A DNA stretch of 64,000 nt, from the NCBI GenBank assembly GCA_977017645.1, contig OZ360235.1, positions 90,458,001 through 90,522,000 on the forward strand, in the 5' to 3' direction. The notes under the pieces are model-generated. The model was given only the letters and a program-made list of their open reading frames with translations. It had not been told where the DNA came from and did no database searches. The position numbers and the translations under genes are program-made. Shown here in pieces: positions 14,229 to 39,535 of this stretch. The stretch is from Torpedo marmorata (lineage: Eukaryota). Numbering within the stretch: the first letter of the stretch is position 1; each line of letters opens with the position of its first letter.

Positions 14229-14700
14229 ACACTGCTTCTGATTACTTCGCTGCCATAGAAAAGTGGTTAGGGTTATCAAGGAGGATGAAGAAATGATGAT
14301 CTCTTGGCTCCGGCTTGAAATGTTTTTGTTGATTTAAACATCCCTCATTGAGCTAATGTCGGATTAAGGTACAGGATAATGGCTTGAGGAACCCGCAGAG
14401 TCTTCATTGAACAGCGGCCTTCCATCCAACACCACCTGCTCCAGGAAATCTCTCTCAATTAGTGCACTGGCCAACCAACCTCAGACAGATGCTTGAGCAT
14501 CAGATGACATAAAATCGTCAGTCCCTTCTGTGTATTATTTATCCACCATGATACATGGAAGAATTATTCCTGAGACAGTGCCCACGGCAGAGCTATGAAC
14601 GTCTTTTTTATTTCAAAAATTGCTGTTTATTTTTGAAAGGATATGCCCAGGTACAGTCTTGGAAAATTGGCTGTTGAAACAGCCATTAATTCCTTTAAAT
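14229..14700 (+). pseudogene. Eph ligand-binding domain and Cys-rich start remnant
   Basis: DYFAAIEKWL; QDNGLR at 14372 (Eph QDNWLR); RVFIE at 14397 (RIFIE/RVYIE); DA*AS..SV..VYYLSTMIHGRIIPETVPTAEL at 14488-14595 (QDxGAC..SVRVYY...FPETVP); KDMPRY..ENWLL (KDVPKMYC..GEWLVP). Large internal deletion and several frameshifts. Confidence 0.7.
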
Positions 14701-14847
14701 TGGAATCACATCTGATGTTAAGGCATTCCAATAATAGAAAGCAAATTTGCTTCTCACCCACTGGACTGGAATATATGAATACAGCACAGAATTGTCCTTT
14801 TTTCTTACGTTACGACCGTTAACTCTTCATTCAAGTTCTTTGTGTAG

Positions 14848-15012
14848 ATTTGTGCGAGTAACTTGGCTGAATGTTCAGTATAAGTCTTCCTGGACCACCC
14901 TACTGTTCATGTCGTACCAAACTTTACTATGGTCTGGGCACTTTGTTGTGAAAAGTATGTGCATTTTCTGGATCATTTATGGAAGATACTCTACGACCCA
15001 CCATGAGTCTTG
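14848..15012 (+). pseudogene. Eph EGF-like exon remnant
   Basis: Acceptor TTCTTTGTGTAG; YKSS, CCEKY and LYDPP resemble Eph YKA...CxCExxYFRAxxDPP. Weak alone, supported by position. Confidence 0.4.
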
Positions 15013-15489
15013 ATCAAAATTCACTCCAAAGGAGCACGATGAAGTGACCCTGCACATTGGGGTTGAGGGTGGGTTCTCCTGACAGTGCAGATATACCTGC
15101 TGGTTTTGTTGAAGCTTGCTGATGAATAATAATTCTCCAAATCAGATACTTGTGGAGGGAAGGAAACAAAATGATGTCATGCTTCACTTTGTCATCTTTT
15201 TTTTAATCTAAATCCGTGCTGTTTCAGTTAAGTGGTTTCCTGGGACTAGGCCCTTCCCAGATTCATTGAACTAATGACAATGTCTCATCAAGACTGTAAC
15301 AGTCCTCAACTTGTTGTCTGGCCTGGAAATATTGGTAACTGCGCACTGTGTCTTATCATACTCTAACTTGGCTAAAAACCATTCGTAAGAGGTGGCTGTG
15401 ATGTGTGTCCTCACTCTCAGTACAAATCTTTGTATTGTTACTGTGTTGATTGAACATTCATGCAGTGGGTCAGAGAGCTAAAATATTTT

Positions 15490-16010
15490 AGAACATAGAG
15501 AACATAGAACACTACACACAGTACAGGCCCTTCATCCCTCGATGTTGTGCCGACCCATATATTCCTTAAAAAATACTAAACCCTCCCTACCTCGTAACCC
15601 TCTATTTTTCTACCATCCATGTGTCTGTCTAAGAGTCTCTTAAATGCCCCCAATGTTTCAGCCTCCACCACCATCCTTGGCAAAGCATTCCAGGCACCCA
15701 CAACTCTGTGCAAAAAAACTTACCCCTGATGTCTCCCCTAAACTTTCCTCCCTTTACTTTGTACACATGTCCTCTGGTGTTTGCTATTCCTGCCCTGGGA
15801 AAAAAACACTGGCTGTCCACCCTATCTATGCCTCTCATAATCTTGTAGACCTCTATTAAGTCTCCTCTCATCCTTCTATGCTCCAAAGAGAAAAGTCCCA
15901 GCTCTGCTAACATTACCTCATAAGACTTATTTTCCAATCCAGGCAACATCTTGATAAATCTCCTCTGCACCCTCTCCATAGCTTCCACATCCTTCCTATA
16001 ATAAGGTGAA
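15490..16010 (-). mobile_element. CR1/HER1 LINE 3' fragment
   Basis: MERVQRRFIKMLPGL...LGLFSLEHRRMRGDLIEVYKI; (TTCTATG)n-type tail. Confidence 0.92.
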
Positions 16011-16316
16011 TTTTGAATCATGAACATGAAATTATAGAAAGCAGAATGTATGGTGTTATTTAGCGTTCTATTCTTTGGAAGTGATGTATTGGAGGGATTT
16101 GTATCAGCTCGTGGTCATATCATTTCCAATAAGGGTTTTGCAAACATCACAATGGCTGCCATTGTCAACCGACAATCCATTGCACATTCCAACATAACTG
16201 TCTGTACATTTAGGGCAGCTCCCATCTTTCGATACAATGCTTTGCAGTGTTTTCTGTTTGAGAATGTCGCCTTGTGGTCAATGTCCTTCGTTTCAATTTA
16301 ATAAAGTGAGAAATAG

Positions 16317-16690
16317 AACTATCTTCTCCATTGTGTCAACGCACCTCTGAATCAACAGTCTGGCAGACATTATGGCAACCTTCACCTCATCCGAAGCCTA
16401 TGAAGGAGGATTGATTGCTCTTCTGGGTTTGAGAAGACTGCTTGGAAAAGGATGCAACTTGTCAAGCCCAGAAATAATTTCTCAATGCAGTGATCAAAAT
16501 GTAAACAAAGAAGCAGAATTTTATTCAACAGACACTTGAACATGAGTTCCCTTCAGTTGCTTCTCTGACAGAGCATTGGTGCCAAATTAGTCACAGCCAT
16601 GCTGATCTGCATAGTTGTCAGTTCAACAGCAGCCAGGAGGGAATGTATTGTTTCATTGTCTTCATTGAGTCTTTGGAATGCTAAATGGTG
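16317..16690 (+). pseudogene. Eph first FN3 exon remnant
   Basis: After AAATAG (phase 1), one frame reads LSSPLCQRTSESTVWQTLWQPSPHPKPMKED*LLFWV*EDCLEKDATCQ; reading the second TGA as Cys gives C-x2-C-x6-C, as in EphA2 EDIVYSVTCEQCWPESGEC. Confidence 0.65.
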
Positions 16691-17802
16691 ACTATTGTTT
16701 TATTATGACTCCTGTTCCTGTGTTATTAGAGTATGAGATGTTGGTTAAAGGAGCAATACAGGTTGTGTTGATGAGCTGAATCCAAGTTTTGAGGGAGAGC
16801 TTTACTGTAACCAAAATCACCACAGCAGGAGAATAAAAGTCCAAGGTCTACATTTTGAAAAATGGTGGCGCGCACAGACGCAGTGGCTCGACGCTCTCCT
16901 TTTTGGTGCTTTTTATGTGTGTTTTCGTCTATATGTTTGTTTGCCGATGTTAAGTTTAGTGAAGCGAATTCCATCTACAGCTGCCAGGACCTTTTGATCA
17001 TAGGATTACAGTGTAACCAGGCCATTACGAGTGAATTCCTGCACTCACGCAATATAGCCAGGACACCGGGCTCTCCCTGGATTGTTGTCGGCTCCGGCAG
17101 GTGTCGGAGGCAGAGGAGACACAGGAAGCAGAAGCGTGGACGCAGGTCTGGCCTAATTGCTAGGCTAAGGAGACAACCACACAAACCACCGCTACCCAGT
17201 ATTTTTCTCACTAACGCCAGATCCATTACCAATAAAATGGACGAATTGAATCTACAGATCTCCGTGAACAAACTCATTGAGGACTATTGTATTCTCTTAA
17301 TACAGAGACGTGTCTACACCCACTTATCCCAGACGTAGCCATTGAGCTAGCAGGCCGCACAGCATTTCGCTGGGATAGAAACAAAGACTGCGGTAAGAGC
17401 AAGGGAGGGGGGGGTTATGCATTTACATACACAACAACTGGTGCACTAATACCAAGGTCATAGACAGACACTGTTCTTCTGACTTGGAGTACCTGACAGT
17501 TAAATGCAGGCCTATTTACCTTCCACGTGAGCTTACCGTTGTTATAGTCACAGCAGTTTACATTCCACCGGATGCTAACGCTAGCATAGCTTTCAGCTAC
17601 CTGCTCAGTGCTATAAATTCACAACAGTGCACCTATCCCGAAGCAGCCCATATCATAGCCGGTGATTTTAACCATGCAGATCTAAGGGCAGTTCTCCCGA
17701 AATTTGAACAACACATCAAATGTGCTACTAGGGAGAAAAACACAAGATGAAGTTTATTCAAATATTAGGAACGGTTTTAGGTCAACATCACTACCACACT
17801 TA

Positions 17803-19457
17803 AGAGTAAACTGTATTAAAATGAATGTTTTTCCAAGAATTCAATATCTTTTTCAATCGATTCCTTATGGTATCCCAAATAAATTTTTTAAGGATTTAAA
17901 ATTTGTTATTAGGAAATTTTTATGGAAAGGAATGTTGGCAAGAGTAAGTATAGATAAATTAACATGGAATTATGAGATGGGAGGATTGCAACTTCCCAAT
18001 TTTCAGTATTATTACAAAGTAGCTCAATTAAAATTTATTAATGAATTTTTTGATTCAACTAAATCTTCTGCTTGGATTAATATAGAATTGAATAATATAG
18101 GAGAAATACATAAAGAAGAGATTATTTATAAGTGGAATTCTAAACTGTTATCAGTTAAAAAGAAAAATTCACCAATCATTAAACATTTGTTGGAAATTTG
18201 GTCACAGGTAGATAAAGAGATAGGTCGAAAAGGATCAATTTCTTTAAATACACCAATATACCAAAATCCGCTTATACCATTTTCTATTGACAATCAGTTA
18301 CTTAAATTATGGTTTCAAAAGGGAATTAAGACCTTAAAAGATTGTTTTGAAGCTGGTAGATTCATTACTTTTCAAAGGTTAAAAGAAAACTTTAATATAT
18401 TAGACAATACAATGTTAGTTTATTTTCAAGTTAAAGCCTTTTTGACTGAGAGATTAGGGAATGAATTAATAGCACCAAGACAAAATGAATTGGAATTGTT
18501 AATTACTAAAGTTAATATTAATAAGTTTATATCACAAATGTATAAATTATTTCAGAGAAAGATGTCTAAAGTAGGGTTACATAAATCTAGATTAAAATGG
18601 GAATTAGACTTAAATGTTAATATAGATGAAAATCATTGGAAAGAGTTGTGTAAATTAAGTATGACTAAAGTTATTAATGTTAGATATAGATTAGTACAAT
18701 ATAATTTTTTTTCATCAATTATATTTAACACCTAAAAAATTGAAGAAATTTAATCCAGCGTTATCAGATATGTGTTTTAGATGTAAAAGTGAAATAGGTT
18801 CTTTTGTACATTGTACATGGTTATGTTCAAAAATTCAAGATTTTTGGTTGAAAGTTAAGAATTTTTTAGAGAGAATTTTTAATGTTGAGTTTACAATGGA
18901 TCCTATGTTATTTTTATTTGGAGACATTAAAAAATTTAGTATTAGAAATAGATTAAATATGTACCAAGTAGAATTTCTACGTATAGTATTAGCAGTTTCG
19001 AAAAAGTGTATAGCTATTACTTGGAAGTCGGATGTGGATTTAAATTTAGAACGATGGCATGCAGAGTTACGTTCATGTATACCATTAGAAAAAATTACTT
19101 ACAATTTGCGAAATAAATATCATTTTTTCTTGAAAATTTGGGGCCCATACATGAGAATTATGGGTTTAACAATTTAAATTCTCTAGATATCGGATCCACT
19201 GGCGAAAATAACCTCTATGGTAAATTAGTTTGAAGTTTGTTGTCTCCTCACCCTATTTTTTCTATCTTTCTTTTTTCTTTTTCTCTTTCACTATATTTTT
19301 ATTTTTAGAGTAGTGGGGATATAGGGGTTAGGGAGGGGAGGGTGGGAAGGGGGGGAGAAAATGTATATCACATGTATTTTTGAAATATATGCAAAATTAT
19401 TTTATGTATTCTGTGATTTAAAAATTTAAATAAAATATAAAAAAAACAAAAAAAAAC
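17803..19457 (+). mobile_element. 5'-truncated L1 (ORF2 C-terminal part, G-rich 3' UTR, polyA) inside Rex1
   Basis: 17-bp TSD CATCACTACCACACTTA at 17786-17802 and 19458-19474; CFRCKSEIGSFVHCTWLC; A-tail at 19439-19456. Confidence 0.95.
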
Positions 19458-21167
19458 CATCACTACCACACTTAGGCCAGTCAGACCATCTATCCATATT
19501 CTTAACCCCATCATACACCCCCCTCAGGAGAAAAGTTCAACCCATCACAAAGACTGTCAAGACGTGGCCTGAAGGATCTTCCTTGCAGCGGCAGGATTGC
19601 TTTGAAAGGACTACTTGGGACATTTTTGAGGACCAGGACTTGGAGGAGTACACATCAACTGTACTCTGCTACATACAGATCTGTGTTGACAATGTCATCG
19701 TCGATACACACATCCGGGTGTACTCCAACCAGAAGCCCTGGATGACAAAGGAAGTTAAAACTCTCCTCAAGGACCGTAACACTGCCTTCAGGTCTGGTGA
19801 CAGAGCCCTATACAGCGCTGCTAGAGTTAACCTGAGGAGAGACATCAGGGATGCTAAATCGGCCTACAAGAGGGAGATCGAGGACCACTTCACCAATAAC
19901 GACCCACGGCGGGTGTGGAAGGGCATCCAGCACATCACTAACTACAAGATGAGCAATCGTACGACTGTCGACGGTGATGCCTCGCTGGCAGAGGAACTTA
20001 ACTGTTTCTTTGCTCGCTTGGAGGTGAAAGCAGCGGAGACGGACGTAACACGTCCACCAGCCTCCAACAGTCACACCCTCACTGTGCAAGAGCATGACGT
20101 GCGGCGGGTACTTAGAGCGGTGAATCCGAGAAAAGCTGCCGGCCCAGATGGTGTGACAGAAAGGGTGCTGAAGGAATGTGCAAACCAGCTCTCCGAGATC
20201 TTCACAAAGATCTTCAACCTGTCCCTGTCTACATTCACCATCCCACCTTGCCTGAAGTCTGCCACAATCATTCCACTGCCAAAAAAGACAGTCATCAGCG
20301 GCCTCAACGATTACTGTCCGGTAGCGCTCACACCGGTCATCATGAAGTGCTTCGAGAGGCTGGTCTTGCAGCACATCAAAGCTAGCCTCCCACCCACCTT
20401 TGACCCATACCAGTTTACCTACAGAGCAAATAGGTCCACAGAGGACGCCATTGCCACTGCTCTTCACACTGCACTGACTCACCTTGAACATCAGGGGAGC
20501 TATATGAGGATGCTTTTTATAGACTTTAGCTCTACCTTTAACACCGTCATCCCGGGAAAACTGGTTACCAAAGTTAATGACTTCAGATTTTCCCAACCCA
20601 TCTGTCACTGGATCAAGGACTTTCTGACCAATCGCCCCAGACTGTGCGATTAGGCCCTCACCTTTCCTCCACTCTTAAACTCAGCACCGGCTCTCCGCAG
20701 GGCTGTGCGTTGAGCCCCATTCTCTATGTCCTCTCCACTCATGACTGTGCCCCCACCCATTCCACCAACACCATCATCAAGTTCGCGGATGACACGACTG
20801 TGGTTGGACTTATCTCAGGAGGAGACGAGACAGCCTACAGGGATGAAGTCCAAAGACTGACAGCGTGGTGTTCAGAGAACAATCTCGTCCTGAACTTCTC
20901 AAAGATAAAAGAACTCATAATAGACTTCCGGAAGAACAGTGCAGACCCTGACCCACTAAACATGAATGGGGACTGTGTGGAAAGGGTCACTGCTTTCAGG
21001 TTTCTGGGTACGCACATCACAGAAGACCTCTCCTGGTCTGCCAACACCACCTCAGTAGTCAAGAAGGCACAGCAGCGACTCCACTTCCTGAGGATTCTCA
21101 GGAAAATCAACCTGCAGGAGAAGCTGCTGATGTCCTTCTACCGCTGCTCCATCGAGGGTGTTCTGGC

Positions 21168-21265
21168 ATACTGTATTCCTGCGTGGTATGCCAGCTGTTC
21201 ATACTGTATTCCTGCGTGGTATGCCAGCTGCTCATACTGTATTCCTGCGTGGTATGCCAGCTGCT
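21168..21265 (+). repeat. 33-bp tandem triplication in the Rex1 ORF
   Basis: CATACTGTATTCCTGCGTGGTATGCCAGCTGYT x3, encoding YCIPAWYASC x3. Confidence 0.95.
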
Positions 21266-21984
21266 TAGCAGCGGACAGGAGAGTTCTTCAGAGGGTCATC
21301 AATATTGCTCAGAAGATCATCGCCTGCTCACTGCCCTCTTTGGAGGATTTATTCAGCACTCGCTGCCTCAGTAGAGCAGCCAACATACTGAAAGACCCAT
21401 CCCACCTTGGACATCATCTGTTTGAGCTGCTTCCCTCTGGTAGATGCTTCAGGTCCATTAAATCACGGACAAACAGACTTAAGAACAGCTTCTATCCCAG
21501 AGCCATACAAGAACTGAACACTGCCAAGCACTGACACCGATTGGTTGGGATCTGTGTGACTATCAGCACTACAATACTACAGTCACACCTATAGAACAGT
21601 TATATACAATTACAACTGTACCTTTTTATGTATATATTCCGGACTGCATTATTTGTATATAGAGCCACTACATTACAACTGCACTTTGTATGTAAATATT
21701 CCCAACTGCACTACTTGTATTGAGGGCCACTGCAATTTTTAATTCCAGTAAATGTGCAATATCCAGAAGTGCAATATCTCAATATCTCAGTTGCTTTCGT
21801 ATTGTTTTATTGCTATTGTATTGTTTTATATCTTTTTGTTTTCTTTTTTTAATTGCTGTTTGATTGTGTGAATGCACCGTTAGGATTGCTAATTAATTTT
21901 GTTGTACTCTGTGCAATGACAATAAAGGAATATCTATCTATTTAAATTAAAATCATTTGACTTGTAGAATTTTTTTTTGAGAGA

Positions 21985-22218
21985 CTGTATAGCATGGTAA
22001 CGGCCGTCTGGCCCACAATCCCGTACCGCCTAAATGTGCCCATGTGACCAATCAATCTCCCAACCCCGTTCATTTTTTGGAATGTGAGAGGAAACTGGAG
22101 CACCTGGAGGACACCCACAGGGAGAACGTGCAAACTCCTCACAGACGGCGGTAGATTCAAACCTGGGTCACTGGCGCTCTAATAGTGTTGCACTAACCGC
22201 TACGCGATTGTGCTGCCC
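21985..22218 (-). mobile_element. V-SINE copy (diverged)
   Basis: Reverse-complement match to the SINE consensus. Confidence 0.85.
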
Positions 22219-22308
22219 TCTATTAATTTAAAAATGGACTTGTTTTTCTACCTCTTACATAAAATAGAGACCATGAAGACGTTTTAAAACTGTACTTTTG
22301 CTACTAAT

Positions 22309-22935
22309 GTGTCAGTTATAAGTAAAGAAAAGGACAAAGTAAATAAGGTAAAGGAAAGTTTGCCTAATGAAAAGAGTTGTTTGTTCTGTAAAGGTGGACA
22401 TACTTTGGAAATGTGTTTACGATTGGAAAAGAAGGAACATAAGGAAAAGATCGCTTTCTTAAAGGAAAATGGAATATGTTTTAGCTGTTTGTGTAAAGGA
22501 CACATCAGTAAAAACTGCGAGAAGCGAATTAATTGTAACATATGTAATTTGAAACATCCTAGAATTTTGCATATCCATAACAGAAACAAGGAATTGGGAA
22601 AAGAGCAAACAGAAACAAAGGAAACAACAGAAAATAATGTTATAACCTCGGTTCAGACAAGTGGTCTTACTGGGGCTGGTGTGGATAACTGCAAACTTTC
22701 AATAGTGCCTGTACAAGTCAAGGCCAAGAAAGGGGATGTAATAGTAAAAACATATGCATTTTTAGACCCAGGCAGCACTGCATCCTTTTGCACGGAAGGA
22801 CTAATGAATAAACTTAATATTCAAGGAAGAAGAACAAGAATTATGTTAAAAACCATGGGACAAGAAAAGGTTGTTGAAACTAACATTATAACAGGCTTAG
22901 AGGTTGCTGGATTGGATGACAAAACATTTACCTGA
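22309..22935 (+). CDS. gag: BEL/Pao gag Zn knuckles and aspartic protease (partial)
   Basis: 208-aa ORF with three CCHC/CCHH knuckles and a DPGS active site. Confidence 0.85.
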
Positions 22936-24211
22936 AATTAATTCTGAGATAGAAATGCTGATTGGTTCAGATGTGCCAAAGATTTTGGAACCACTAGAAG
23001 TAATACAGAGTAAAAGGAATGGACCTTACGCTATTAGAACCAAGCTTGGTTGGACAATCAGTGGACCACTGGAAAGAAATAATGATATTGCTCAGGAACA
23101 GTTAGCAATAAATATTAATAGAATTTCGGTTGTGAAAGTTGAAGAGTTAAGCGAAGAGCAAAAAACTGTGAATAAGAAAATCACTTTTGAAGAAAAGAAA
23201 ACAGATCAATGTGAAAATAAATCAAGGGTATTTAAAACAACATTGAAGGAATTGTTTTCACCAAAAATGAATGAAAGTGAAGTATTAGAAAATGTTGCAA
23301 ATAATACTATTGATCATTCATGTGTAATTGAATCCAATACAGGAATAAAACAAGTGACTGAAAACAAATCTGAATGTAGATTTTGTAGTTCAGAGATTAC
23401 AACAGATAAAGCTAACGAAGAAAGATTACAATGTGATGTAAAACTGGAAAACACAAAAAACTGTACTGATGGAATAAAGAATAATGTGAATGATAATTTA
23501 ATGCAATTGAATTCAGAGAACAAAATGTTGAAAGGGGAATTGGAAATATTAGATAATCAAGAAAACAGTAAACAGAAAGATTTAATTGTAAGTAAAACTC
23601 GCAAAGTCAGAAAGCAGAAGAAAAGAATAACTGCTGAAGAAATGAATACAGTTATCGAGGAAAGAGATTCAGCATTATCAAAATGTAAAAGGTTGGAGGA
23701 AGAGATTAATGTTTTGAAAGAGAACAAGTTATTGATTAATAACACAAAACAATTAACAATGCAGAAAGAATGTGATATTGCATTGCAGAAATGTAACAAG
23801 CAAGACGAAGAAATTAAAAAATTTCAAGTTTGTCGCAACAGGATTGACAATGGAAATATCAACGTATCACATGATATTTTGACTTCAGATCAAATTATTA
23901 ATTTCTCAGAAAGAACTGAGACTGAATTGAAAGTTGCAAAATTGGATTTGGAATTGCAGGAAAAGGCAATAGAAACCAGAGTGGTTAAACAGACCTGTTT
24001 AAAATCGAAAAGATCAAATAAATATTCAAATTCCAGTTCTAAGAGTTTAAATTCTTCACATGAGAAGTGGAATACTGAAAAAAGAAATAAAGTGAAACGA
24101 CATGTTGAAGAAGTGCCTTGTGTTAAATTCAAAAGGAAAGCTGTGTCTATTCTGTGTGAGGAAGATCTGAGGTTTGCTGGTCAATGGTTTGGCTCATGGA
24201 TTCTACAGTAG
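22904..24211 (+). CDS. MIPOL1: BEL post-protease segment fused to a MIPOL1-like coiled coil
   Basis: 435-aa ORF; [28 protein letters not shown] matches remembered vertebrate MIPOL1 [28 protein letters not shown]. This is a captured fragment, not the host locus. Confidence 0.75.
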
Positions 24212-24423
24212 ACAGAGGAACTTTAATAAGTACAAACTGACTTTATTTTGTTGGATTTTTGTGTTTTGTACTTTGCCCACTACACGGACTTCAGAGTGGA
24301 AGTGAAGATGAAAAGAGACCTGTGTAACGTTCGAATGTTATGAAGTTAATTGTTATATAATGGATTATAGTTATGTAATTATTATTAGAGACGTTACATC
24401 TCATTATAATAATTAGGGGCCGG

Positions 24424-25199
24424 TGTAAGAGCCATAGGCTCACTACTTACCTGCTGTTTTGGCCACGGGCGCCGGCGGTGTCCCGGGGTCCGTAGGCCTC
24501 TTCCCGTAGGCTGCATGCGCGAATGCCGCCACCGCTTACGGAGCTGGAGCGTGGCGGCGTATGCATGGTTGGCTCGGCAGCGGCGGCTTCAGCCGGGGCC
24601 GGCATGTCCATCAGTGCACATGCGCCATGGACTAGGTCGATGCATGCGCGGTTGGCTCAGCCCCAGCAGTGAACGGTTGGAGCCGGGGCCAGCGCGTGCA
24701 CAACGGAGCATGCGCGGGTGGGATCTTCATTAATTTAAATATAGGTTCCCCCGCGCGAGTCGTCAGTTGGAAATCTGAGGAGGGTGAGTTAGGTGTCGAC
24801 AATTTCTGTCGACCGTTTTATAACACGATTAATAACATTGAACAACGTTTAATACTCGTTTAAGCATCGTTAAAGAAAGTTAAGCATCCTAAAAGAACAT
24901 TAAAGATCATTGAACTTTGTTAATCATCGTTAAGACGTTGAATATCGTTGAACATCGCTAAAGATCGTTAAGCATCGTTAACTTTTATATGAATATTTTG
25001 TTATTAAGAATTCAGCCACATAGAACGTTACTTAAAGACTTTTCATAGAACATTAAAGAAGATGGTTACAAGTTTTGTGTTTTAAAAATAAAGAATTTAA
25101 ATACAACTGAACTTGTATTGGAAATAAATGAAAACGCGTCGCAGACAAACACCTAACTTAGCCTCCAAGCGACTATTTTTATTGGTCGAAGTCGCTACA
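24424..25199 (+). repeat. 3' LTR of the BEL/Pao element
   Basis: TGTAAG...GCTACA termini after the PPT; AATAAA signals; GCATGCGC repeats and ~10-bp (A)GCATCGTTA-type repeats at 24830-24980. Confidence 0.8.
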
Positions 25200-25340
25200 G
25201 ACACCAAGATGGCTTGATTGATGTAATTCCAATATTCTGTCAAAGAGCCAATTGAAGGTAATTCCTGTTATGGTAAATTCAGCTCTCTGTTAACTAAAAC
25301 TTTGCTGATGTTTTGGCAAAGAACAATTAATCCTGGTCAG

Positions 25341-25462
25341 CGGAATTGAAAGTTTTTGGCATTTCTTCCACTGGATATAATTTTACATCCATTCTTGAAC
25401 AGCCTCCAAATAGTGACTGCATTATTTGGATCTCAGGAGAGTTCCACTTCCAAATGGAAAAT
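25341..25462 (+). pseudogene. Eph second FN3, first-half exon remnant
   Basis: CAG acceptor (phase 1), ELKVFGISSTGYNFTSILEQPPNSDCIIWISGEFHFQMEN, GTAAGG donor (phase 0); same split and phases as in Eph genes. Confidence 0.55.
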
Positions 25463-25619: not shown

Positions 25620-25790
25620 TCCCGAAAATCAAGCTTGTGAAGTGTTTTGGAATTGTGGTCACCACTGAAACTGTGCAGTTTCAGCAGCCTACTTGTGCAC
25701 AGCACGATCCCTACAAAATCACTGTGTTTGCAATGAATAATGTAGGCTTGGGGGGCGAACGGTGTATTGACCATGATACTAGGGACTGTG
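25620..25790 (+). pseudogene. Eph second FN3, second-half exon remnant
   Basis: YKITVFAMNNVGLGGERCIDHDT fits the FN3 signature YxxxVxAxNxxGxG...T. Confidence 0.65.
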
Positions 25791-26599: not shown

Positions 26600-27295
26600 A
26601 AAAAATGGTGGTGCTGCCAGAGCTGCTGTGCTGGTGCGGACCCGGACCCAGGGAGCAGAGACGCAGCACTGCTCCGAAGGGTTCAATTGCCTGGTCCTAA
26701 TTCCGACGGTTCCGTACAGCTTTAACTGGCTTGTTAAAGGAGCCGACTGTGTTTTCATTAAAATCCTGCAACCGCAGGGTCTGTGCCCAAGATGACGGAG
26801 TCTGAGCTCGTCAGCGGCCACGAAGGGTTGCAGACTGCGGGGGGGGTGGGGGTGTAGCAGACCGATGCAGGGCACCAGAAATGGGGAGAACATCCCCCAT
26901 TGAGAAGGAGAAGCAGAGGAGAAGACCCGTCAGGATGGTGACCACAGTGGCTGACCAGCGAGGGGCTCAGCGGCTGAGCGACCCACACAGGTTTTGGGCG
27001 ACTTGCGATCGGGGGACCTGCAAGGACTGCAGGCTGCTGGAGACTGGTTCATGGGAACCAGGTATCGGAGCCAGGATTCGACGGGGAGCTGAGGGCAAGA
27101 AGAGCTTCCTGTTTTGGATCTGGAGCTCGGGTTGCCAATGAATCTAACTGGAGTCTGTGCAGCTCAGAGTCTGCGGGAGCACTGGAGGCGAGACCACAGA
27201 TACTCATTGTCTCTAAAGGGACTCTCTTTTGCTTTTCTTTCTCTCACTGTAAGGGGCGCCGGGTGACACTAATGGAGACTCTTCTATGTTTTTTA
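26600..27295 (+). mobile_element. Non-coding interspersed repeat, same family as 63873-64000
   Basis: 27208-27290 matches the reverse complement of 63915-63995. Confidence 0.6.
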
Positions 27296-27948
27296 CACAG
27301 CCGTTGAGTTCCAGAATTTTATTTCCAAAATTCCGGAACGCAGGCTGTGTAACAAGATCGGAATGGAAAAAGTGACTAATTTCCGTTCCAACATTTTACC
27401 TCCTGGACCTCTGGAAAGTTTTGTGGATCGCCTGCAGTCTAAACACAACTACAGGCGATCGGCAGCAAGGGGCTAATGAATATGACGCTTGATGACGTTT
27501 AAGCCGCGCGATGTTGCAGCGCGGGATTTTTAAATGTGCAGCCTGCAGACACAGATGATACACGTCACTGACGACGTTGACGCAGTGATGCTGTACGTCG
27601 CACGCAGGGTCTACGTCACGGTCGACGTCGACGCAGTGGCGTCCCACGTCCAGCCTACATAAATACCGCAACTCAGGTATTTAGTGTAAACGCGCGGTGA
27701 TATCCCAAATTTTGGAGTTTTGGTCATTCCTGTGTGAACGGCCACTCCGGAAGGTAAGTGTGAAACTTGTCGACAGAAAAATATCGTTAGTTATATGTAA
27801 AAAACATATTTGTCTTCCTTACAACGCAGGAGGCGGTTTCTGCAATTTGACATGTTCAGTACTATTACATAACAATGATGGAATCTTGAATCTAGTTACT
27901 GGTTCCCAACCTGGAAATAATCAATTTGTTCCTCCTCTTTGTTTTCAG

Positions 27949-28050
27949 TCAGTTAACCATTTGTCAGCCCATGCTAATCTAAATCTGACCTCTTGTGCTT
28001 TGTTTGTATTTCCATGCAAAGTGTCCATGCTGTTGGTCTTCCATAATGAG
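27949..28050 (+). pseudogene. Possible Eph transmembrane exon remnant
   Basis: Strong acceptor CTCTTTGTTTTCAG, hydrophobic LTSCALFVFPCKVSMLLVF, AG/GTGAC donor; lies between FN3 and kinase remnants. Confidence 0.4.
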
Positions 28051-28113
28051 GTGACAGTGTAAAGCCTTATGAAGATCATTTCATTGAAGTAATTGCTTTT
28101 AAGAAGTCTACAG

Positions 28114-28475
28114 TACATTGGATCCGAGTTGTTCACTTGCCATCATGAACTATTACAGACCAAAGGACTCATTGAAAGAAATTGATCCCTGTGAAATTCA
28201 CTATGATTCACTGACTGGGTCAAGCTTTCGTAATGGGACGTTCCTGCATTTCAAACCCGCCCAACTGAGGAAATTGGAATGCAGACCTCTAGGATTTTAT
28301 GATAAAAAGTTCACAGAAAAAGACAGTGCATACACTTATTGGGAGAGATTCACCAGAGAAGTTACTTGTGTATCTTGCTCACAGTACTAATCTAAAATAC
28401 ATCCTCAGCAGTGCAGGTCTCACTAGGTGTCAGTGTACGCCAATCCACAGCAACAATAATTGTGCCATGGACCAG
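28114..28475 (+). pseudogene. Eph juxtamembrane and kinase N-lobe remnant
   Basis: TAC ATT g GAT CCG (YIDP with a 1-nt insertion), KEIDPCEIHYDSLTGS, ERFTREV, GLTRC, NNCAMDQ then GTGAGT donor. Confidence 0.65.
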
Positions 28476-28664
28476 GTGAGTTGATGACTGTTCCTGCCGA
28501 ACTCCAGGGAACTATGCCATGGAGATGCCATTGTTATTATATCAAGTGACTGCATTATGGTGCCAGTCTAACCATTCTAGGCTCCACACTGCACTCTGCC
28601 AGCATTGAAGGCTTGTGTAATGAGAAATGCTATTACTACAATTATTGATAAGATGTCAGTGTAA

Positions 28665-28852
28665 AGTTCATCAACAATGATCAGATTTAGTTTCAATGGA
28701 CGCAGAATATTCCGACAAGGAATGAATATACATGTTGCAGCATCGTAGCAGCTGGTCATGTCTGCATGTGTCTTTGTTTGCTGCAAACTGGCTCGTGCAG
28801 CTCAGCTTCCAAAAGGATTGGAGACAACCGTATACATTTCTCTTTAATCTTG
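28665..28852 (+). pseudogene. Kinase subdomains VI-VII remnant
   Basis: DLVSM / QNI / GM in shifting frames, then HVAAS*QLVMSACVFVCCKL...ETTVY (compare AARNILVNSNLVCKV...EATY); HRD and DFG are lost. Confidence 0.45.
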
Positions 28853-29057
28853 TGAGTAAATTCTGTGTGTCTTGCAGCAGCATAAATCAGTTTTAAGGTT
28901 CCAAGTTCTTCAGAAGCTGCCGTCCCATCATTTTTGAGCAAGTAAAACAGTAAAATGAAGTACATTTGCCACTCATGCCATGTTAAGACCATGTGCATTA
29001 GCCCTTTTTAATAAGCCATAATGAAATGAGAAATAGTTGAAGGAAACTATCATTTAG

Positions 29058-29200
29058 GCTCTGAGCAGTGAGCTGATGTCTCCAAACCATAAACAAGAAC
29101 TGGGGAAGCTGATATAAATTTCACAAGATGCTTGACATCTCACACAGTGCTTTGTGAAATTGCCATGGGGATTGTTTGTATTTCCGATACCACCCCACTT
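29058..29200 (+). pseudogene. Kinase subdomains VIII-IX remnant
   Basis: After TTTAG: AVS(W)MSP...SQDA*HL / VLCEIAMG, compare PxRWxxPE...SDVWSFGIVxWExxxxG. Confidence 0.5.
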
Positions 29201-29204
29201 GAGG

Positions 29205-29700: not shown

Positions 29701-29704
29701 AATA

Positions 29705-30797: not shown

Positions 30798-31009
30798 GAT
30801 AAAGACCCAGCTTCACCTTGTAACTCAAGTCCTTTTGTCTTTGTAACATCTTGGTGAATCTTCCCTGCACCCCTTCCAAATTATTAAGGACCTTCCTCTA
30901 GCTGGGCAACTAGAACTGAACACAGTACTCCAAGTGTGGTTTCACCAATGCCTTGTACAGCTGAATCATGAAGTCCTGATGTTTGTACTCATCTTCTCTG
31001 TGCAAACAG

Positions 31010-31200
31010 ACCCCTGGGTGGTCAGATGTTATACAAGGTTCCAAAATCATACTCGTGCTGCAAATTGTGAAAGTGCCCACCACTGAACTATCCCTGATGT
31101 CTTTCAGCCCCACTGAATGTAAGGTCAGATTCAAAACTCTCAGCACAGTAGCACCAAAATGCTCAGGTCTCTGAACAACCTGAATTCAATGTATTGCTCA
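31010..31200 (+). pseudogene. Kinase subdomains X-XI remnant
   Basis: Acceptor CTCTGTGCAAACAG; DVIQGSKI, ANCESAHH*TIPDVFQ (DCPSALHQLMLDCWQ), VRFKTL, KMLRSLNNLNSM (Eph DKMIRNPNSLK). Confidence 0.6.
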
Positions 31201-31280
31201 AACACCGAGACATTGAGCTGAATTCAATAAAGTTACATTTCTGGAATGACCTCTGGTCATTTTGTTTCGTCTCTGCTCAG

Positions 31281-31410
31281 TAAACTTAACCAGGACAACA
31301 CTTTGGGAGTTCACTTCCTGATCTTGGAAGATGAAACAGTGTTCCTATTGTTGACTGTGATTCAGTGATCAATGAAGAACAAATGAATTTGCGTGCTATT
31401 GTTCGCCAAC
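31281..31410 (+). pseudogene. SAM domain first exon remnant
   Basis: TLGVHFLIL/KMKQC (TVxEWLxxIKMxQY) and DSV..QMN. Confidence 0.4.
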
Positions 31411-31429
31411 CACAGCACTCACCCTGAAG

Positions 31430-31815
31430 TTGGAAGGTGATGGGTTCAAGTCCTGTCCAAGCTGACTCTAAGCTGGCACTCTTTGCAGCGTTGAGAAAGC
31501 TTGAACAACCAGAGCTGTTGTCCTTCAGACAAGACCTCTAATGTCATCTTGTGAATGTAAAAGGTTCCATGACGCAGCTGAAGAAAGTTGGGAGGTTTCT
31601 CCCTTTCTCCTGACCGATCTTTGGCCCTTGACCAGCTTCTCTGAAAACCAGTAAACTGATAGCAACACAGTGATGCTTGTCCAACCCTGCTGCCTGAGAG
31701 ATCGTTTGCCATGTTGCTGCATCACTGCAGCGTCGACGCTTCAGAAGCATTTAATGTATTGCAGTGTGTGTTGGAATAAGCAAAGGACACGCGAGATTGC
31801 TACATGAACACGGTG
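31430..31815 (+). mobile_element. Old Deu-domain SINE (SacSINE/AmnSINE-like), highly diverged
   Basis: GGGTTCAAGTCC B box and Deu-like 3' part; similar remnants at 31880-32030, 33190-33300 and 56240-56540 (-). Confidence 0.55.
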
Positions 31816-32805
31816 CTATTTTTCATGACCTCTGGGTGAAATATTAACTTTGCTCTCTCAGTTGTCCTCTGACCCTTTTTCGAAGAAGAATGGTGTGGAT
31901 TTCCTGCACAATCTTGGAATATATTCATTGCTCAGTCAACATTAGTAAAGCATTGATTCTGTAGTCATGATCATATTGTTGTATGTGTGAACTTACTCTG
32001 GGGAAAATTTGCTTCTGCATAACGACATTGAGTCATCCTACGTACATGGTTGTTGCTCAATCATCTTGGGCTCAAGACGTGGCCACAAGAGCTCCTCAGG
32101 GAGTCCCCGAGAGCCAAAAAACTTCCTCCTTCTCAACGGGGGATGTTCTCCTCCTTCCATCACACTGAAGTGGAGATGTTTGCTGTTGATTGCACAACAT
32201 TCAAGTCTATTTGCTAATTAAGCAGTCCATGTCCAAACAACATGCAGGTTTGCGTTTGCCAGTGGCAAGTCACATTTGCGCCAGGCAGTAGCCTTCACTG
32301 ACAAGAGAGCCCAATCACCCTTTGATATTGAACAGATCCAGATTCTCACACCAGAGTTAAGAGTTCTTTATGTAATCTCGTTCAGGTTTGCAGTTGTTAA
32401 TTCTTCAGCCAGTTGGTCACATCACGGTGTTCATCAGCCAAAATTCGATAAAATGACTGATACCAGCATCTGACGTAATGAGGAGGAGTTGTGGGATATC
32501 AATGTAGCATCATCCTCCACCTCTCCCCAACTCCTCAATGGGTTTCTTCCATGGAGTCTTCCTCTCTGGCCTCCCACACTCCAGGTGAACACATGATCTC
32601 ACTGGGACGGGTGTAGTTAGTGAACACCACCCACTGATGCCAAGGTCGAGTGATCCTTGCTCCTTGCGGGAACAAAGAGTGGGTGACTTGGAAGGTCCCA
32701 GCTCACTGAGCAGAGGGAGACTCCAACCTGATAACGTCACTTTTGGCATGTTGGATACTCTGGCCCATTGAATGAGGGGAACGTTCAGGTGCGTTGGTTT
32801 GGACA

Positions 32806-32903
32806 GTGTTGGTTTACTGATTGCTGGTTTATTTGTGTTGGTTTACTGATTGCTGGTTTATTTGTGTTGGTTTACTGATTGCTGGTTTATTTGTGTTGGT
32901 TTA
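32806..32903. repeat. 29-bp tandem repeat, about 3.3 copies
   Basis: GTGTTGGTTTACTGATTGCTGGTTTATTT. Confidence 0.92.
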
Positions 32904-33476
32904 TTCACTTTGGTTAACTCATATTTAACAGTGTTGGTTTACCAGTGCTAGCTTACAAATGCTTGCATGTTTTCAGACAGTATGATTCACCCAATCTGTG
33001 ATGCAAGAATAATTTTCATTCCAAGACTAAAATAATTTATTTTAATGATGTTATAAGCTATGGCTGATCTTTGCTCATGTTCTGAGCCCTTGTACCTGTT
33101 ACTAGACAGACATAAACTCTCCCGTGCACTTTCAAACTATGACATGATGTTTTCTTCCAGATTCTCTCTCAACCAGCACACCATATACAGATCAGCTTCA
33201 TTGCTGTTTGTGAAAGCTCTCTGTGCACAATTTGGCTGTGTTCCAACAGTGCTTCACTTCAAGAAGTGTTTCATGGTTGTTGAATGCTTTGGACTGCTAC
33301 GTTACTCAGCATATTGCAGCCCAGAAACAAGCCATTCACCCCAACCAGTCCCTGTGTAATTTTGCTCCTCCCCTGATTTAGTAATCAGCAAAGCTCGGTC
33401 CCCCGTTGCTTCATGTTCTTGTCCAGTTTCCTCTCATTACACTGTTTGTCTCATCTATTACCCTTCACATTATCAT

Positions 33477-33674
33477 AGGGGCAGCACGGTTAGCGTAGCG
33501 GTTAGCGCAACACCGTTACAGCGCCAGCAATCGGAACCGGGGTTTGAATCCCGCACTGTCTGTAAGGAGTTTGTACGTTCTCATACCGGGGGTTGTAGGT
33601 TAATTGGGTGTAATTGGGTGGCACGGGCTCGAGGGCCGAAATGGCCTGTTACTGTGCTGTATGTCTAAAAAAAA
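33477..33674 (+). mobile_element. V-SINE with internal deletion
   Basis: Head and tail intact, core of the V domain missing. Confidence 0.88.
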
Positions 33675-35757
33675 TCACCACTTTAGATGAAGATCTTCTT
33701 CTGAATTGCTTTAGCAACTCCCTCATCCTATTGGCCTCCCACACTTTTGTCTGTAAAAATCCTGTCTAATTTTAGCAACTTTGGTTAGGCTAAGCCTCTG
33801 TCCTCTTTAAAAAATAAAGTCTGTTCATTGCTTTCTGCTGGTTATAATCTTACGATTCTGGTCCATCCTTGTTTATATACGCACTACACCCTTCTACTAT
33901 TCATTTCTGCCATCCAGCAGTAAACTCATGGTTATTTTTGTGGTCTTATTGTCATGATGCACATTCAAACATTTGTACTCCCACATCCCTCGAGTCTTCT
34001 GCACGATTTACATTGATTTGTCAACTGACCTGTCATTTTCTTTCCAAAATGCAACACCTCACATTTGCCTGCATTGAAAGTGACTTGCCAATTACAGATG
34101 CATTGTGTAGGATTATTTATCTTCTCATTCATTCGTTCTCTGTCACTGTCAATTTCATGTTGTCTCCAATTTTAAGATTTTGTTTCTAATTTCCAAATAT
34201 TATTGGACATCAGTGGGCTTCAAAGTAGCAGTGCTGCGAGTATTTACAATGTATTGCAAAACCAGTTGAAGGAAACAACAGTGAATGAATGGTGTTCATT
34301 AATGCCCCCTCCCCACTCCTAATATTGCCCTCAAATTTGAGATTTTGTTTCTTTAATTTCTAAATCTGAATTATTGATATAAATCATAAATACTCAGGAT
34401 TCGAGTGTTGAAACTTGCAGGGCCACTTCCCATTTTCTGCCACTCCAGAATATAGGAACACAAACAATCAGAGGGAGAGGAGGTCACAAACCTCAGTATC
34501 TAGAAAGCAGATGTGACATGTTTCCCCCCCCCCCCCCGGCCACAGTCCCCTATTTGTGAGCCTTCAAGGTGGGTGGGGGTGGTTTCTGGGCACATGGGAG
34601 CTTCCACTGGACACCGGCGTCCACCACTTTTTGAGCCCATGCAGAGGAGGCGAATAAAATCAGTGGATCATTCATCTCAAGCAATGCTTCCTGGATTGCT
34701 CAGGAGGCAGTTTATAGTTTTCAGCCCAATACACGCAGAAGGTCTACAACCTGCCAATAATGGTGGTTGGGTCCCTTGCCTGGTGACGATCAGCAGGTGA
34801 GGGAAGAGGAGAAGCAGTCAGCTGATTTGGTGGGACATCTGATGACATCACGCCTTCCATTGCCAGTTCCTCCAGTTGTTGTCACACCTTCAACCTCCCT
34901 TTGCAGGCCTTATCACCGTTGATTTGCCCACAATTGCTGAATGCAAGGCCACATCACGTCAACATTCAGAGAGCTTCACAGCATGAAAACAGGCCCTTCG
35001 GCCCAATCCATCCATGCGAACTAACTTGTCCAGTCCCATTTGCCTGCCTTTGGTCCGTATCCCTATGAACCTTTCCTATCCATGTACCTGTCCAAATGTC
35101 TTTCGAGCATTGGAATGTTTCGTTCAGCGAGAGAGTAAAAGATACAAATATCTTTCTCTCACTCTCTGACTGCTCCCATGCAGGACTGCACAAAAGTTGG
35201 TGGACAGCTGCATTCCTGCATTGGAAGAGGAGTTGGCCTTCAGCAACTCTGCAGCTAGAAGGCGCAGCTTCACATTGCATGCAGTCACTATGACCTGGGC
35301 CCACTGACCTGCAGCAGCAAGGGAATTCGCTGTCAACTGCTCTGGGACCACCAGAGAACTGTCTGCACTATTTTCTTGCACTAAAAGCAATTGTGAATAT
35401 TTGTTTATATCTTCTTCTGTCTTGGAATATTGTGGTGATTTAATTTATACTATTGTAGTTAGTGTATCTTATCTTACTGATTTGGCTGCAACATGTAAAG
35501 ATTTCGGTGCATCTGCACATATGTAATGACTATAAACTCTCAACTCAACATCTCATCTCATTGCCATAGTGACAGGTGTGGGATCACAACTGCTCTCTGT
35601 CATCTTGAAACAAGACAGCAGATGTATTCCTCAGAGCCATTGACCCAAATTGGTGCCTTGACAATCCTCCTCATCTGTTGGAGTCAAGCCACAAAGCATC
35701 TTTTAACATGTGTGCACAAAGTCCTGCTGTTGGACTAGTTTTTGGACTAGTTGGACA

Positions 35758-35990
35758 CAGGCAGCATGGTTAGCATAGCGGTTAGCGCAACGCTGCTGCA
35801 GCACCAGCGATCGGGAATAGAGTTCGAATCCCGCGCTGTCTGTAAGGAGTTTGTACGTTCTCCCCGTGTCTGCGTGGGTTTTCCCCGGGGGCTCCGGTTT
35901 CCTCCCATCATTCAAAACGTACTGGGGGTGTAGGTTAATTGGGTTCGTGGGCTGAAATGGCCTGTACCGTGCTATATGTCTAAATATTTT
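35758..35990 (+). mobile_element. V-SINE copy
   Basis: Consensus match. Confidence 0.9.
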
Positions 35991-36290
35991 TTTAAAATTA
36001 AAAAAATATTCCCTTATAGCAAACAAAGAATTGCTGGAGGAACTCAGCAGGTCAGACAGCATCCATGGGTAGAAATGGTCAGTCAACATTTCAGGGTGAT
36101 GAAGTCTCAATAAGGGGTCCAATGTAAAGATAAAGGCAACTCGTCTCTTGCCTATCAGCTCAGAGAGCACCACCTTGAGGGAAGGTGAGAAGGGACCCGA
36201 CACATTGACTGACCATTTCTACCCATGAATTGTTGTCTGACCTGCTGCATTCCTCCAGCAAAGCTTTTGTTTCCCCAAGAAATTGTAATT

Positions 36291-36550
36291 GGGCGGCACG
36301 GTTGGCATAGCGGTTAGCGCAACGCCTTTACAGCGACAGCGATCGAACCGGACCTGGGTTCGAATCCCACGCTGTCAGTAAGGAGTTTGTACGTTCTCCC
36401 CGTGTCTGCGTGGGTTTTCCCCGGGGGCTCCGTTTTCCTCCCACCCTTCAAAATCGTACCGGGGGTGTAGGTTAATGGGGTGTAAATTGGGAGGCACAGA
36501 CTCGTGGGCTGAAATGGCCTGTTACCGTGCTGTATGTCTAAATTTAATTT
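36291..36550 (+). mobile_element. V-SINE copy (full length)
   Basis: GGGCGGCACGG start, B box, V domain, TGTATGTCTAAAT tail. Confidence 0.92.
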
Positions 36551-36884
36551 TTTTTTAAAAGATTCCAGCATCTGCAGTATTTGTGTTTCTCTTTCCCCAA
36601 TAACCTGGCAGCATTTCCCTTCTCACCTTCCCTCAAGGTGGTGCTCTCTGAGCTGATGGGCAAGAGTATCAGATGGAGTGACAGGTTGCCTTTATCTTCA
36701 CATTGGCTTCCCAGCATTTTATGCGTGGCCGGATATCAATCAAGCAAAAATGTCAGATGCTGGAAATCTAAAATAAAAGCAGAAAATGTTTGATATACTT
36801 AGCAGGTCAGGCTGTGTCCGTGGGAAGAGAAACAGAGTAAACGCGACAGGTCAATGACTCTCTGTCAGAACAGTGAAGGAGGAA

Positions 36885-37760
36885 ACCTGCAGGTTGAGTC
36901 GGTAGTAAGGAAGGCAAATGCAATGTTAGCAATCATTTCAGTTGGACTAGAATATAGTGGGGCAGCACGGTTAGCATAGCAGTTAGCGCAACGCTGTTAC
37001 AGCGTCAGTAACCCGGGTTCAAATCCGGTGCTGTCTGTAAGGAGTTTGTTCGTTCTCCCCGTGTCGGCGTGGATTTCCTCCGGGTGCTCCAGTTTCCTCC
37101 CACCCTTCAAAACGTACCGGGGTTGTAGGTCAATTGGGTTTAATTGGGCGGCATGGGCAGGTGGGCCGAAAGGGCCTGTTACCGTGCTGTATGTCTAAAT
37201 TTATAAAGGCAAAGATGTAATGCTGAGGCTTTGTGAGGCATATTGGTCAGAACACATTGGGACCTTTGCAAGCAGTTTTGGGCCCCATATCTGGAGAAGG
37301 ATGTGGTGGCATTGCAGAGGCTCCAGAAGAGGTTTACGAGAATGATCCATGGGATGAAAGGGTTAACGCGTGAGGAGTGTTTGATAGCTCTGGACGTTAC
37401 TCGCTGCAGTTGGGGGTTCTCATCGAAACGGCCCGAGTATTGAAAGGGCTGAATAGAGTGGACGTGGAGAAGATTCAGCAGTGGGAAAGTCCAGGACCAG
37501 AGTGCACAGCCTCAAAGTAAAAGGATGTCCCTTTAGCCAGAGGGTGGTGAATCTGTGGAATTCGTTGCCACAGACGGCTGTGGGCCAGGTCACTGAGAAG
37601 ATTTGAAGCAGAGGTTGATTGATTAATGAGGGTGTCAAAGGTTACGGGGAGAAGGCAGGAGAATGGTGTTGAGAGGAAAAGTACATCAGCCATGATTTGA
37701 ATGTCAGAGCAGCGTCGATGGGCTGAATGGCCTAATTCTTCTCCAAACTCTTATGGTCTA
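36885..37760 (+). mobile_element. CR1 3' fragment with a V-SINE inserted at 36959-37203
   Basis: QFWAPYLEKDVVALQRLQKRFTRMI; CR1 tail; SINE consensus inside. Confidence 0.88.
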
Positions 37761-38149
37761 GTTGCTTCTCCCATCGAGCAATGAATCTGTGGAATTCTCT
37801 GCCCAGAGAAGTAGGAGAGGCTGCCTCATAATTCCCCTCATTTAAAGGTTGATGGTGAGCAGGTGTGTAAGTGGAGCAGAGTGCACAGCCAGTTCTGCCA
37901 ACATCTCATTGATGGCCGACTCTGGCTCCTACTTTTTCTGGTCTTATGTCCCGTGTCAGATCAGATTGGGGTCATGTTAATCACACAATGCAATCTCAGA
38001 GCTCCCTCCACCCCATTTAATAGATCTACTCATCTTGTTGAACACCAGTGCAGGCTCAATGAGGCAATTTGGCCAACTCCTGTTCTTATTTCCCACCGGC
38101 TAAACAGGAAAGTATGCAGACGCTTGCAGTGCAATACACAAAGTATCTG

Positions 38150-38420
38150 ACCGCTTCCATCTCCAGTGACCTGGGTTCAACCCGAACCTCTTGGTGCTCA
38201 CTGTGTGGAGTTTTCATGTTCTGCCTGTGACCTCGTGGGTTTCCCTGGCCACTCCAATTTTCCTCCCCCATCCCAAAGACGTGTAGGTTAGGAAGTTAAT
38301 TGGCTGCTGTCAATTGTCCCCAGTGTGCAGGTGGACGGTAGATGATGAGGATGTGTGGAGAATATGACACAAGGAAAATTACTGGGTGAGCTAGCATAAA
38401 CTTGATGGGCCAAATGACCT
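38150..38420 (+). mobile_element. Older HE1-like V-SINE
   Basis: TGTGTGGAGTTTTCATGTTCT...CATCCCAAAGACGTG. Confidence 0.75.
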
Positions 38421-39410
38421 CCAAGTGTCATTGAAATGATGGAAATTGTATGTGTAAAATGGCAGTAGTTTAGGTCACTGTAGGAGAGGAACTGTGATTA
38501 ACCAGCCAGTGTTGTCACAACTGCACATTGAATGGAAGTCAGGAGATCCATTGAAACTTTAATGAGCTAAATGCGCCCAAGGAGGGCAAAATTAATCTTT
38601 GTCTGATTTTTAAAATGCATTCATACATTCCATGCTGTTCGAGGGTATATCCAGTTGTTTTTATTGGAGTGTGTCGTAAACTCCTCATTATAACTGGCTC
38701 CTGGAACCCAGCCAAGTGCCAGCTTTTAACGAGGCACGACTATTAGGGCTCATTTAGAATTAACTTGAGTGCAGGAGCAGCAGTGCTGGAATCATTTTGA
38801 ATGGAGCTGTTGTCCAATGTTTTTGGCTTGGCCTATTGAGTTAAATATGTCTGCTCGCAAACACGTTCATTGTTTTTGCCACGACAGTCTCCCTTTTATC
38901 CCCTCTGTCTCACTCAGTACCCGTGATGTAATGTTTTGTCAGTAAAGTAAATTGGGCTGACGACCATTCGTCCAAAAAAGAAGCCAGTGATTTTGGCGTC
39001 AGGACAGAGCTTTTGATTAAGTGAAAAAATATCGAAATGTCACTGAAGAAATTGGCTAATCACTTTGTGCAAAGACCTTTCCACTGTCTGTACCGTCATT
39101 TGAAGTCCACTAACTGGTGTGAAGTAGTTCCAGGTATGAACGGAACTTTCTACAAAATGCTGAACTTTCTCTGTTACAGACAAAAAATGTGACAGCTGCA
39201 ATGAATTGCCAGACTCTCTGGCACTGAATATTTGCTGCAGTGGGTGGATTCACTTTCCTTGAGCTTCTAGTGGTTTTGCAGTCATGAACAACGGCAAATT
39301 TAATTTCTTTCCATTAATGTTTCCGTACTGTCCCGTCCTTCCTTGCACAGTCGTGTCCTTTCTATCATCACTGCATCTTCAGTTTAACACAATTAATTCA
39401 CCCATTTTAG

Positions 39411-39535
39411 TTCATGCTTCCTCTGAGACGTTATACTGTGTTATCAATGGGCAGAAGGAAATTCTATTGGGTTCTTCCCAATTACGAAGATTAGTTCTGA
39501 TGATGTGGCAGCAAAGCAACCACAGTGAGGTGTAA
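39411..39535 (+). pseudogene. Eph terminal exon remnant (SAM helix 5 and PDZ-binding end)
   Basis: Acceptor CCCATTTTAG; NGQKEILLGSSQLRR...QQSNHSEV* resembles GHQKKILNSIQxMR..MNQIQSVEV*. Confidence 0.5.

Follow-up and report, generated by a model that had tools for sequence, protein, structure and literature searches.

Vertebrate Eph receptors (EphA1-8 and A10; EphB1-4 and B6) share one domain order, given in two published accounts as ligand-binding domain, cysteine-rich region, two FN3 domains, membrane segment, juxtamembrane region, kinase, SAM and a PDZ-binding end (PMC6993872, PMC8454701). Here we compare that order with a 64-kb stretch of the Torpedo marmorata genome (assembly GCA_977017645.1, contig OZ360235.1, forward-strand positions 90,458,001 to 90,522,000), hereafter the window, in which positions are counted from the first letter. 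Its + strand holds candidate remnants of Eph domains in the same order, with a YIDP-like word upstream of EIDP as in those receptors; unlike them, the window has no open frame, no profile match and no VAIK, HRD or DFG, and its ligand-domain words lie far too close together. Whether these traces come from a dead gene of the Eph receptor family, compact, with introns and without a protein product, is, in our judgement, evenly balanced; they are faint enough for a chance resemblance to be almost as probable. Like unprocessed (unitary or duplicated) pseudogenes, the locus shows exon-like remnants, transposon-filled introns, stops and frameshifts: every candidate domain holds stops or frameshifts, and retroelements occupy the gaps between the non-repeat islands. 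Typical unprocessed pseudogenes have decayed within the reach of single-exon searches, whereas the decay here would exceed what such searches detect.

Eight non-repeat islands (11,092 nucleotides (nt), between 13,403 and 39,851) were defined by hand, and this mask was used for all controls. By the same mask, repeats make up about 15 kb of the 25 kb that separate the first candidate word from the last. The candidate domains are:

14372 to 14595, + strand: candidate ligand-binding-domain words QDNGLR, RVFIE, VYY and PETVPTAEL, in three different frames; the weakest region
14995 to 15003, + strand: DPP, proposed end of the cysteine-rich region; at chance level, with 7 copies in six frames
16317 to 16462, + strand: candidate start of the first FN3 exon; a weak AG, then W..P..ED..(TGA)xxC..C in one frame
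25341 to 25462, + strand: the second FN3's candidate first half, an open 122-nt stretch from phase 1 to phase 0 with donor AAT/GTAAGG
25634 to 25790, + strand: candidate second half of the second FN3, with YKITVFAMNNVGLG at 25712-25753; weak splice sites
27700 to 28050, + strand: membrane-segment region, with two mutually exclusive parses
28114 to 28221, + strand: juxtamembrane-like pair, YIDP (one inserted base) then KEIDP..I......G; the pair is unique in the window
28293 to 29204, + strand: candidate kinase exons, with donor CAG/GTGAGT at 28476, DLVSM at 28684 and a donor at 28852
31010 to 31436, + strand: YKVP....C and KMLRSLNNL as a candidate kinase C-lobe, followed by KMKQ in an AG..GT segment of 156 nt (31281-31436)
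39449 to 39535, + strand: candidate last exon, GQKEIL to SEV-stop; negative against PDB

Four patterns, namely the first-FN3 cysteines, the FN3 strand, the juxtamembrane pair and the C-terminus, are each unique in the window, lie on one strand and follow the Eph domain order. All were built from generally known motifs and fixed after the sequence had been viewed, and their counts, taken against islands simulated with an order-2 Markov model, are therefore post hoc and overstate significance, plausibly by 10-1000x each. The W-P-ED-Cys pattern at 16373 occurs once in the window and was matched in 1 of 5000 simulations. YKITVFAMNNVGLG fits a generic FN3 strand pattern at 7 of 7 positions, as the sole match in the window and with 0 of 4000 simulations as good. 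A YIDP-like word 61 nt upstream of KEID was seen in none of 5000 simulations, and KEID..I..G, at 28175, in 2 of 4000. The C-terminal pattern was reached in 62 of 5000. The juxtamembrane pair is the best Eph-specific feature. From its first Tyr to the Glu of the second word there are 21 residues, two codons more than the 19 of published EphA2 (bioRxiv 10.1101/2025.01.07.631553) and EphB6 (PMC8454701) peptides.

The strongest single pattern, the generic FN3 strand signature, is not specific to Eph. It would suit a fossil of some other FN3 membrane gene, or one in which the second FN3 to the juxtamembrane part alone derives from Eph and the rest is chance. The unretained kinase motifs and the failed ligand-domain spacing (both below) also favour such a partial or non-Eph fossil, which we nevertheless regard as unlikely: 2.4 kb farther downstream lies the juxtamembrane pair, which is similar to published Eph words, and no other family was recognised among 297 open reading frames (ORFs).

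Strand composition provides a second line of evidence, and it concerns the following feature:

13403 to 39851, + strand: T-rich non-repeat span resembling a transcription unit, from T-A skew

The T-A skew is 0.073 inside this span and 0.001 downstream. It is positive in all eight span islands, with block means of 0.071 (51 blocks) against 0.010 (40 blocks in 11 downstream islands); this contrast was equalled in 81 of 20000 permutations of blocks that are not fully independent, had an island-level p of 4e-4, and was unchanged after tandem and homopolymer runs were removed. The skew fades just beyond the proposed stop; upstream of 13.4 kb nearly everything is repeat, and the boundary was compared on the downstream side. 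G+T amounts to 51.7% inside and 49.4% outside, and a G+T excess on the forward strand of genes is described as a footprint of transcription in PMC1391917. No such skew is seen in the 13 proposed exon segments (-0.005 versus 0.095), a loss as extreme in 12 of 5000 random placements and, without the anchor words, in 31 of 5000. Together these observations point to a + strand intron-exon unit ending near the proposed stop, Eph or other.

That the unit may be something other than Eph is the core of the strongest alternative, which we rate as somewhat less probable than an even chance: old non-coding DNA belonging to some other + strand transcription unit, either a different gene's intron-rich end or a long non-coding RNA, with Eph-like words that arose by chance as best matches chosen from about 11 kb, three frames and free frameshifts. 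The T>A skew requires just a transcription unit. The proposed exons, however, lack skew even after anchor-word removal, and the skew fades past the proposed stop; both count against this alternative. Several composition results weigh on the other side. The span shows no G>C skew, the proposed exons show no rise in GC (2021 of 5000 placements as high), and the loss of skew weakens in narrower backgrounds, to 146 of 5000 when only the exon-bearing parts are considered and 312 of 5000 for the cluster of kinase and SAM pieces.

The sequence-only reading had rested its case on the collinearity of its pieces. When 16 of the words it quotes were looked up in all six frames of the window, 15 of the 16 were found on the + strand where they had been placed and in the order given, as word matches:

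14372, + strand: QDNGLR
14397, + strand: RVFIE
14530, + strand: VYY
14569, + strand: PETVPTAEL
14995, + strand: DPP
16433, + strand: EDCLEKDATC
25712, + strand: YKITVFAMNNVGLG
28175, + strand: KEIDP
28684, + strand: DLVSM
29076, + strand: MSP
29147, + strand: VLCEIA
31156, + strand: KMLRSLNNL
31328, + strand: KMKQ
39449, + strand: GQKEIL
39524, + strand: SEV-stop

The exception is YIDP, which occurs in none of the six frames; 28114-28126 gives it once one extra G is skipped. The words are spread over all three frames with stops in between, so disabling stops and frameshifts are present.

Their order does not exceed chance, since unrelated proteins align to the same islands in chains of equal length, and the collinearity argument falls with it. 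Three decoys of 948-1022 aa, assembled from retroelement ORFs of the window, produced 213-280 ungapped segments of at least 25 BLOSUM62 units on the same islands, with collinear chains of 17-23 segments at that threshold and of 8-12 at 30 units or more; the segments in these chains, from unrelated sequence, are as weak as the Eph words. For ten of the 15 words, a perfect match to an Eph would still bring no more than 30 units. Short words are also common, with VYY present 8 times in the six frames of the window, DPP 7, MSP 16, SEV-stop 3 and KEIDP twice, the second KEIDP being on the - strand inside a long interspersed nuclear element (LINE). Look-alikes also occur out of place: TTVNEW at about 34275 on the + strand, the - strand KEIDP, and HRD on the - strand of the kinase island. 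All of this is what chance resemblance would produce; four rare patterns that share a strand and follow the expected order are less readily obtained that way. The TTVNEW element (34272-34325, + strand) is itself a look-alike of the SAM start, equal to KMKQ but 3 kb off, and has no Pfam match.

Domain by domain, further points weigh against an Eph gene. The ligand-domain words are spaced by 25, 133 and 39 nt, and the RVFIE-to-VYY distance in Eph genes is about 300 nt, so the 133 nt found here does not bear out the proposed set. No ephrin ligand-binding domain was matched in any frame of 14101-15302 by a Pfam copy run without an Eph positive control. The first-FN3 piece gave only unrelated best matches in PDB; the piece at 25341-25462 had no PDB match and no relevant Pfam match; the second-half FN3-2 piece went unrecognised by Pfam, PDB, the atlas and the representatives; and a single-sequence AlphaFold model made as an FN3 test was uninformative (pLDDT, the predicted local distance difference test, 35.5). 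In the membrane region, one parse runs from donor 27754 to acceptor 27830 and yields a basic run, and the other, from acceptor 27949/27953 to donor 28051, is the hydrophobic stretch of the sequence-only reading; that both incompatible parses look right by eye again favours chance. Eph genes have two introns between the membrane segment and the juxtamembrane word, and the hydrophobic segment as placed leaves no space for them. A homolog search with the 125-aa frame of this region was empty. YEDP, the second conserved juxtamembrane word, is missing from the candidate region.

Eph kinases carry the motifs VAIK, HRD and DFG, according to PMC6993872. VAIK is not retained here (best match 3 of 4 positions; 3966 of 4000 simulations as good), nor is HRD..DFG (best 4 of 6 positions, outside the kinase zone; 931 of 4000 simulations). 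MSP, D-A-TGA and VLCEIA fall within 29058-29204, and the frames of 31010-31436 were negative in Pfam. The SAM-end word reaches 3 of 6 positions, as do all 4000 simulations. We do not class the locus as Eph because two defining features, the ligand-binding domain and the kinase motifs, were looked for and not found.

Database recognition failed throughout, in searches run without an Eph positive control. Pfam found an Eph-architecture family in none of 21 long, 48 exon-sized and 29 short frame pieces (0/98), and PDB gave unrelated chains alone for 9 of 9 pieces. Homolog searches were negative for all three queries (the FN3-2 and kinase-start pieces at longer lengths, and the 125-aa frame at the near setting), the FN3-2 piece as sole query found nothing among 1.84 billion representatives, and the atlas gave no usable match for two pieces. 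Among 289 island ORFs (at least 48 aa, both strands) and 8 repeat ORFs, Pfam indicated no non-transposon gene, only retroelement-associated families, with two further weak matches below the cut-off; Rfam and tRNA scans of the window were empty. Negative results in every database search are what an absence of any Eph gene predicts.

How much decay could hide an Eph gene was gauged by a simulation that used a stand-in coding sequence and one reference protein, and so resembles the actual searches without copying them: at least 1 of 12 frame pieces was found at E <=10 in 21-30 of 30 runs up to 0.25 substitutions per site, in 5-23 at 0.35, in 0-11 at 0.45 and in 0-2 at 0.6. In simulated spliced alignment (null 112 +/- 12, maximum 140 of 25), 6 of 6 runs at 0.45 substitutions per site scored above the null maximum when the reference was 60% identical; at 0.6, none of 6 did so with that reference and 5 of 6 did with an 85% one. 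The negative searches and the decay simulation together exclude a moderately aged Eph pseudogene, and thus only a heavily decayed or very divergent Eph remains.

Splice sites, scored with our own generic weight matrix, give a mixed picture. The two best + strand donors of the 64 kb, 27754 and 28476, both fall in the membrane-to-kinase island, and AG..GT segments of 122, 157, 183, 192, 147 and 156 nt are near Eph exon lengths. An exon-length chain test, a test of low power based on approximate Eph exon lengths, did not rise above its controls: permuted architectures scored as high in 38, 51 and 29 of 60 cases at three settings and shifted architectures in 36, 36 and 20 of 60 (38/60 and 36/60 being the laxest setting). 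In addition, perfect donors and 7-of-7 motifs are hard to square with decay as heavy as the negative searches require; consensus donors would not be expected to stay intact under it unless splicing continues at the locus. The distance between the two donors is 722 nt, good acceptors are present at 27830 and 27949, and the sites could belong to exons of a non-coding RNA that is still transcribed. A CpG-rich stretch with a short direct repeat (27562-27638) closely precedes the 27754 donor, at 27284-27690, and is possibly a DNA-transposon remnant.

The old, unprocessed Eph loss proposed by the sequence-only reading thus retains its four rare patterns in Eph order and a matching skewed span, and loses both the collinearity argument and any recognition by databases. 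A live protein-coding Eph was rejected on account of stops and frameshifts throughout, and a processed pseudogene was rejected for the whole, the pieces spanning 25 kb. In intron-free Eph sequence KEID and FTEK have a fixed spacing; relative to this value the spacing here is exactly intron-free, which would mean no intron at that junction.

If the locus is a dead Eph gene, a compact gene would have been inactivated and then have decayed neutrally by about 0.35-0.5 substitutions per site, with small indels and a deletion of more than 150 nt in the ligand-domain exon. Its introns would have been expanded by LINE, short interspersed nuclear element (SINE) and long terminal repeat (LTR) elements, the T-rich intron signature would be partly retained, and, more speculatively, residual non-coding transcription may have kept the two consensus donors. 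Time is a difficulty for this history. At 7e-10 mutations per site per generation, the rate given in PMC10587355, 0.4 substitutions per site would correspond to about 6e8 generations, too many for a shark or ray evolving at a similar rate. Therefore the lineage is faster, the paralog was already divergent, or the Eph reading is wrong.

Should the gene be an Eph, its paralog is not settled by the words. The suggestion of an EphA2/EphA1-like gene gains no support over EphB6, as the YIDP-like word and EIDP are as close to YIDP and EVDP, in the EphB6 peptides published in PMC8454701, as to YVDP and EIHP, given for EphA2 in bioRxiv 10.1101/2025.01.07.631553. EphB6 has the words closest to those of the window, and EphA2 differs in both. 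Four features, RVFIE, VYY, the Cys-Glu-x-Cys spacing and KMKQ, presumably resemble EphA2 words. The EphB6 C-terminus includes Glu-Val. An extra phase-1 kinase intron is described for EphA genes only, EphB genes lacking it (PMC4898815); the phase-1 donor at 28476 could be this intron, as in EphA1 or EphA2, and in that respect EphB6 differs. EphB6 is kinase-active outside mammals according to PMC6993872, so pseudokinase status does not account for the missing catalytic motifs.

EphA1 is reported absent from cartilaginous fishes, and its absence there and in ray-finned fishes has placed its origin at the base of the lobe-finned fishes (PMC4898815 and PMC6993872); loss in both fish groups is left open in the former and answered otherwise in the latter. 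We consider it improbable that what remains here is the EphA1 that cartilaginous fishes would have lost. If it were, EphA1 would come from the jawed-vertebrate ancestor and would have been lost twice rather than having arisen in lobe-finned fishes, and the locus would be an exceptionally old, still readable gene fossil. A fossil Eph assignable by synteny would be a direct test of EphA1 origin and would show how readable dead genes are in slowly evolving genomes. If it proved to be another paralog, the record of gene losses would gain modestly, and a real remnant in general would be one more unprocessed pseudogene; if chance is the answer, ordered short words in three frames are no evidence. 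A limited literature search on EphA1 and cartilaginous fish, short of a full survey, returned no report of such an Eph fossil.

The window is rich in transposons: many of its ORFs encode reverse transcriptase, integrase or endonuclease domains, and self-repeats cover 16 kb of it. The stretch 22288-25200 (+ strand) has two ORFs of 215 and 436 aa without Pfam match; the shorter resembles a BEL/Pao gag-protease, and the longer carries an unexplained tail rich in Lys, Glu and Asn. After them comes an LTR-like stretch with a degenerate 10-nt tandem repeat (24860-24981). LINE ORF ends at 20581-21531 and 60799-61458 match Pfam ALKBH8_N along with reverse transcriptase, which probably reflects a transposon-derived Pfam model and not a gene. 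A GC-rich tandem array at 9068-9732 keeps several frames open for 200-350 codons, and 52593-53005 is an assembly gap of 413 N. A gypsy-type element at 766-4563 (- strand) has several frames with DUF7041, protease and reverse transcriptase. A second Gypsy-type LTR retroelement at 48033-51894 (- strand) looks young, with an unbroken 1131-aa frame encoding protease, reverse transcriptase, RNase H and integrase, and a separate gag-like frame that matches PNMA.

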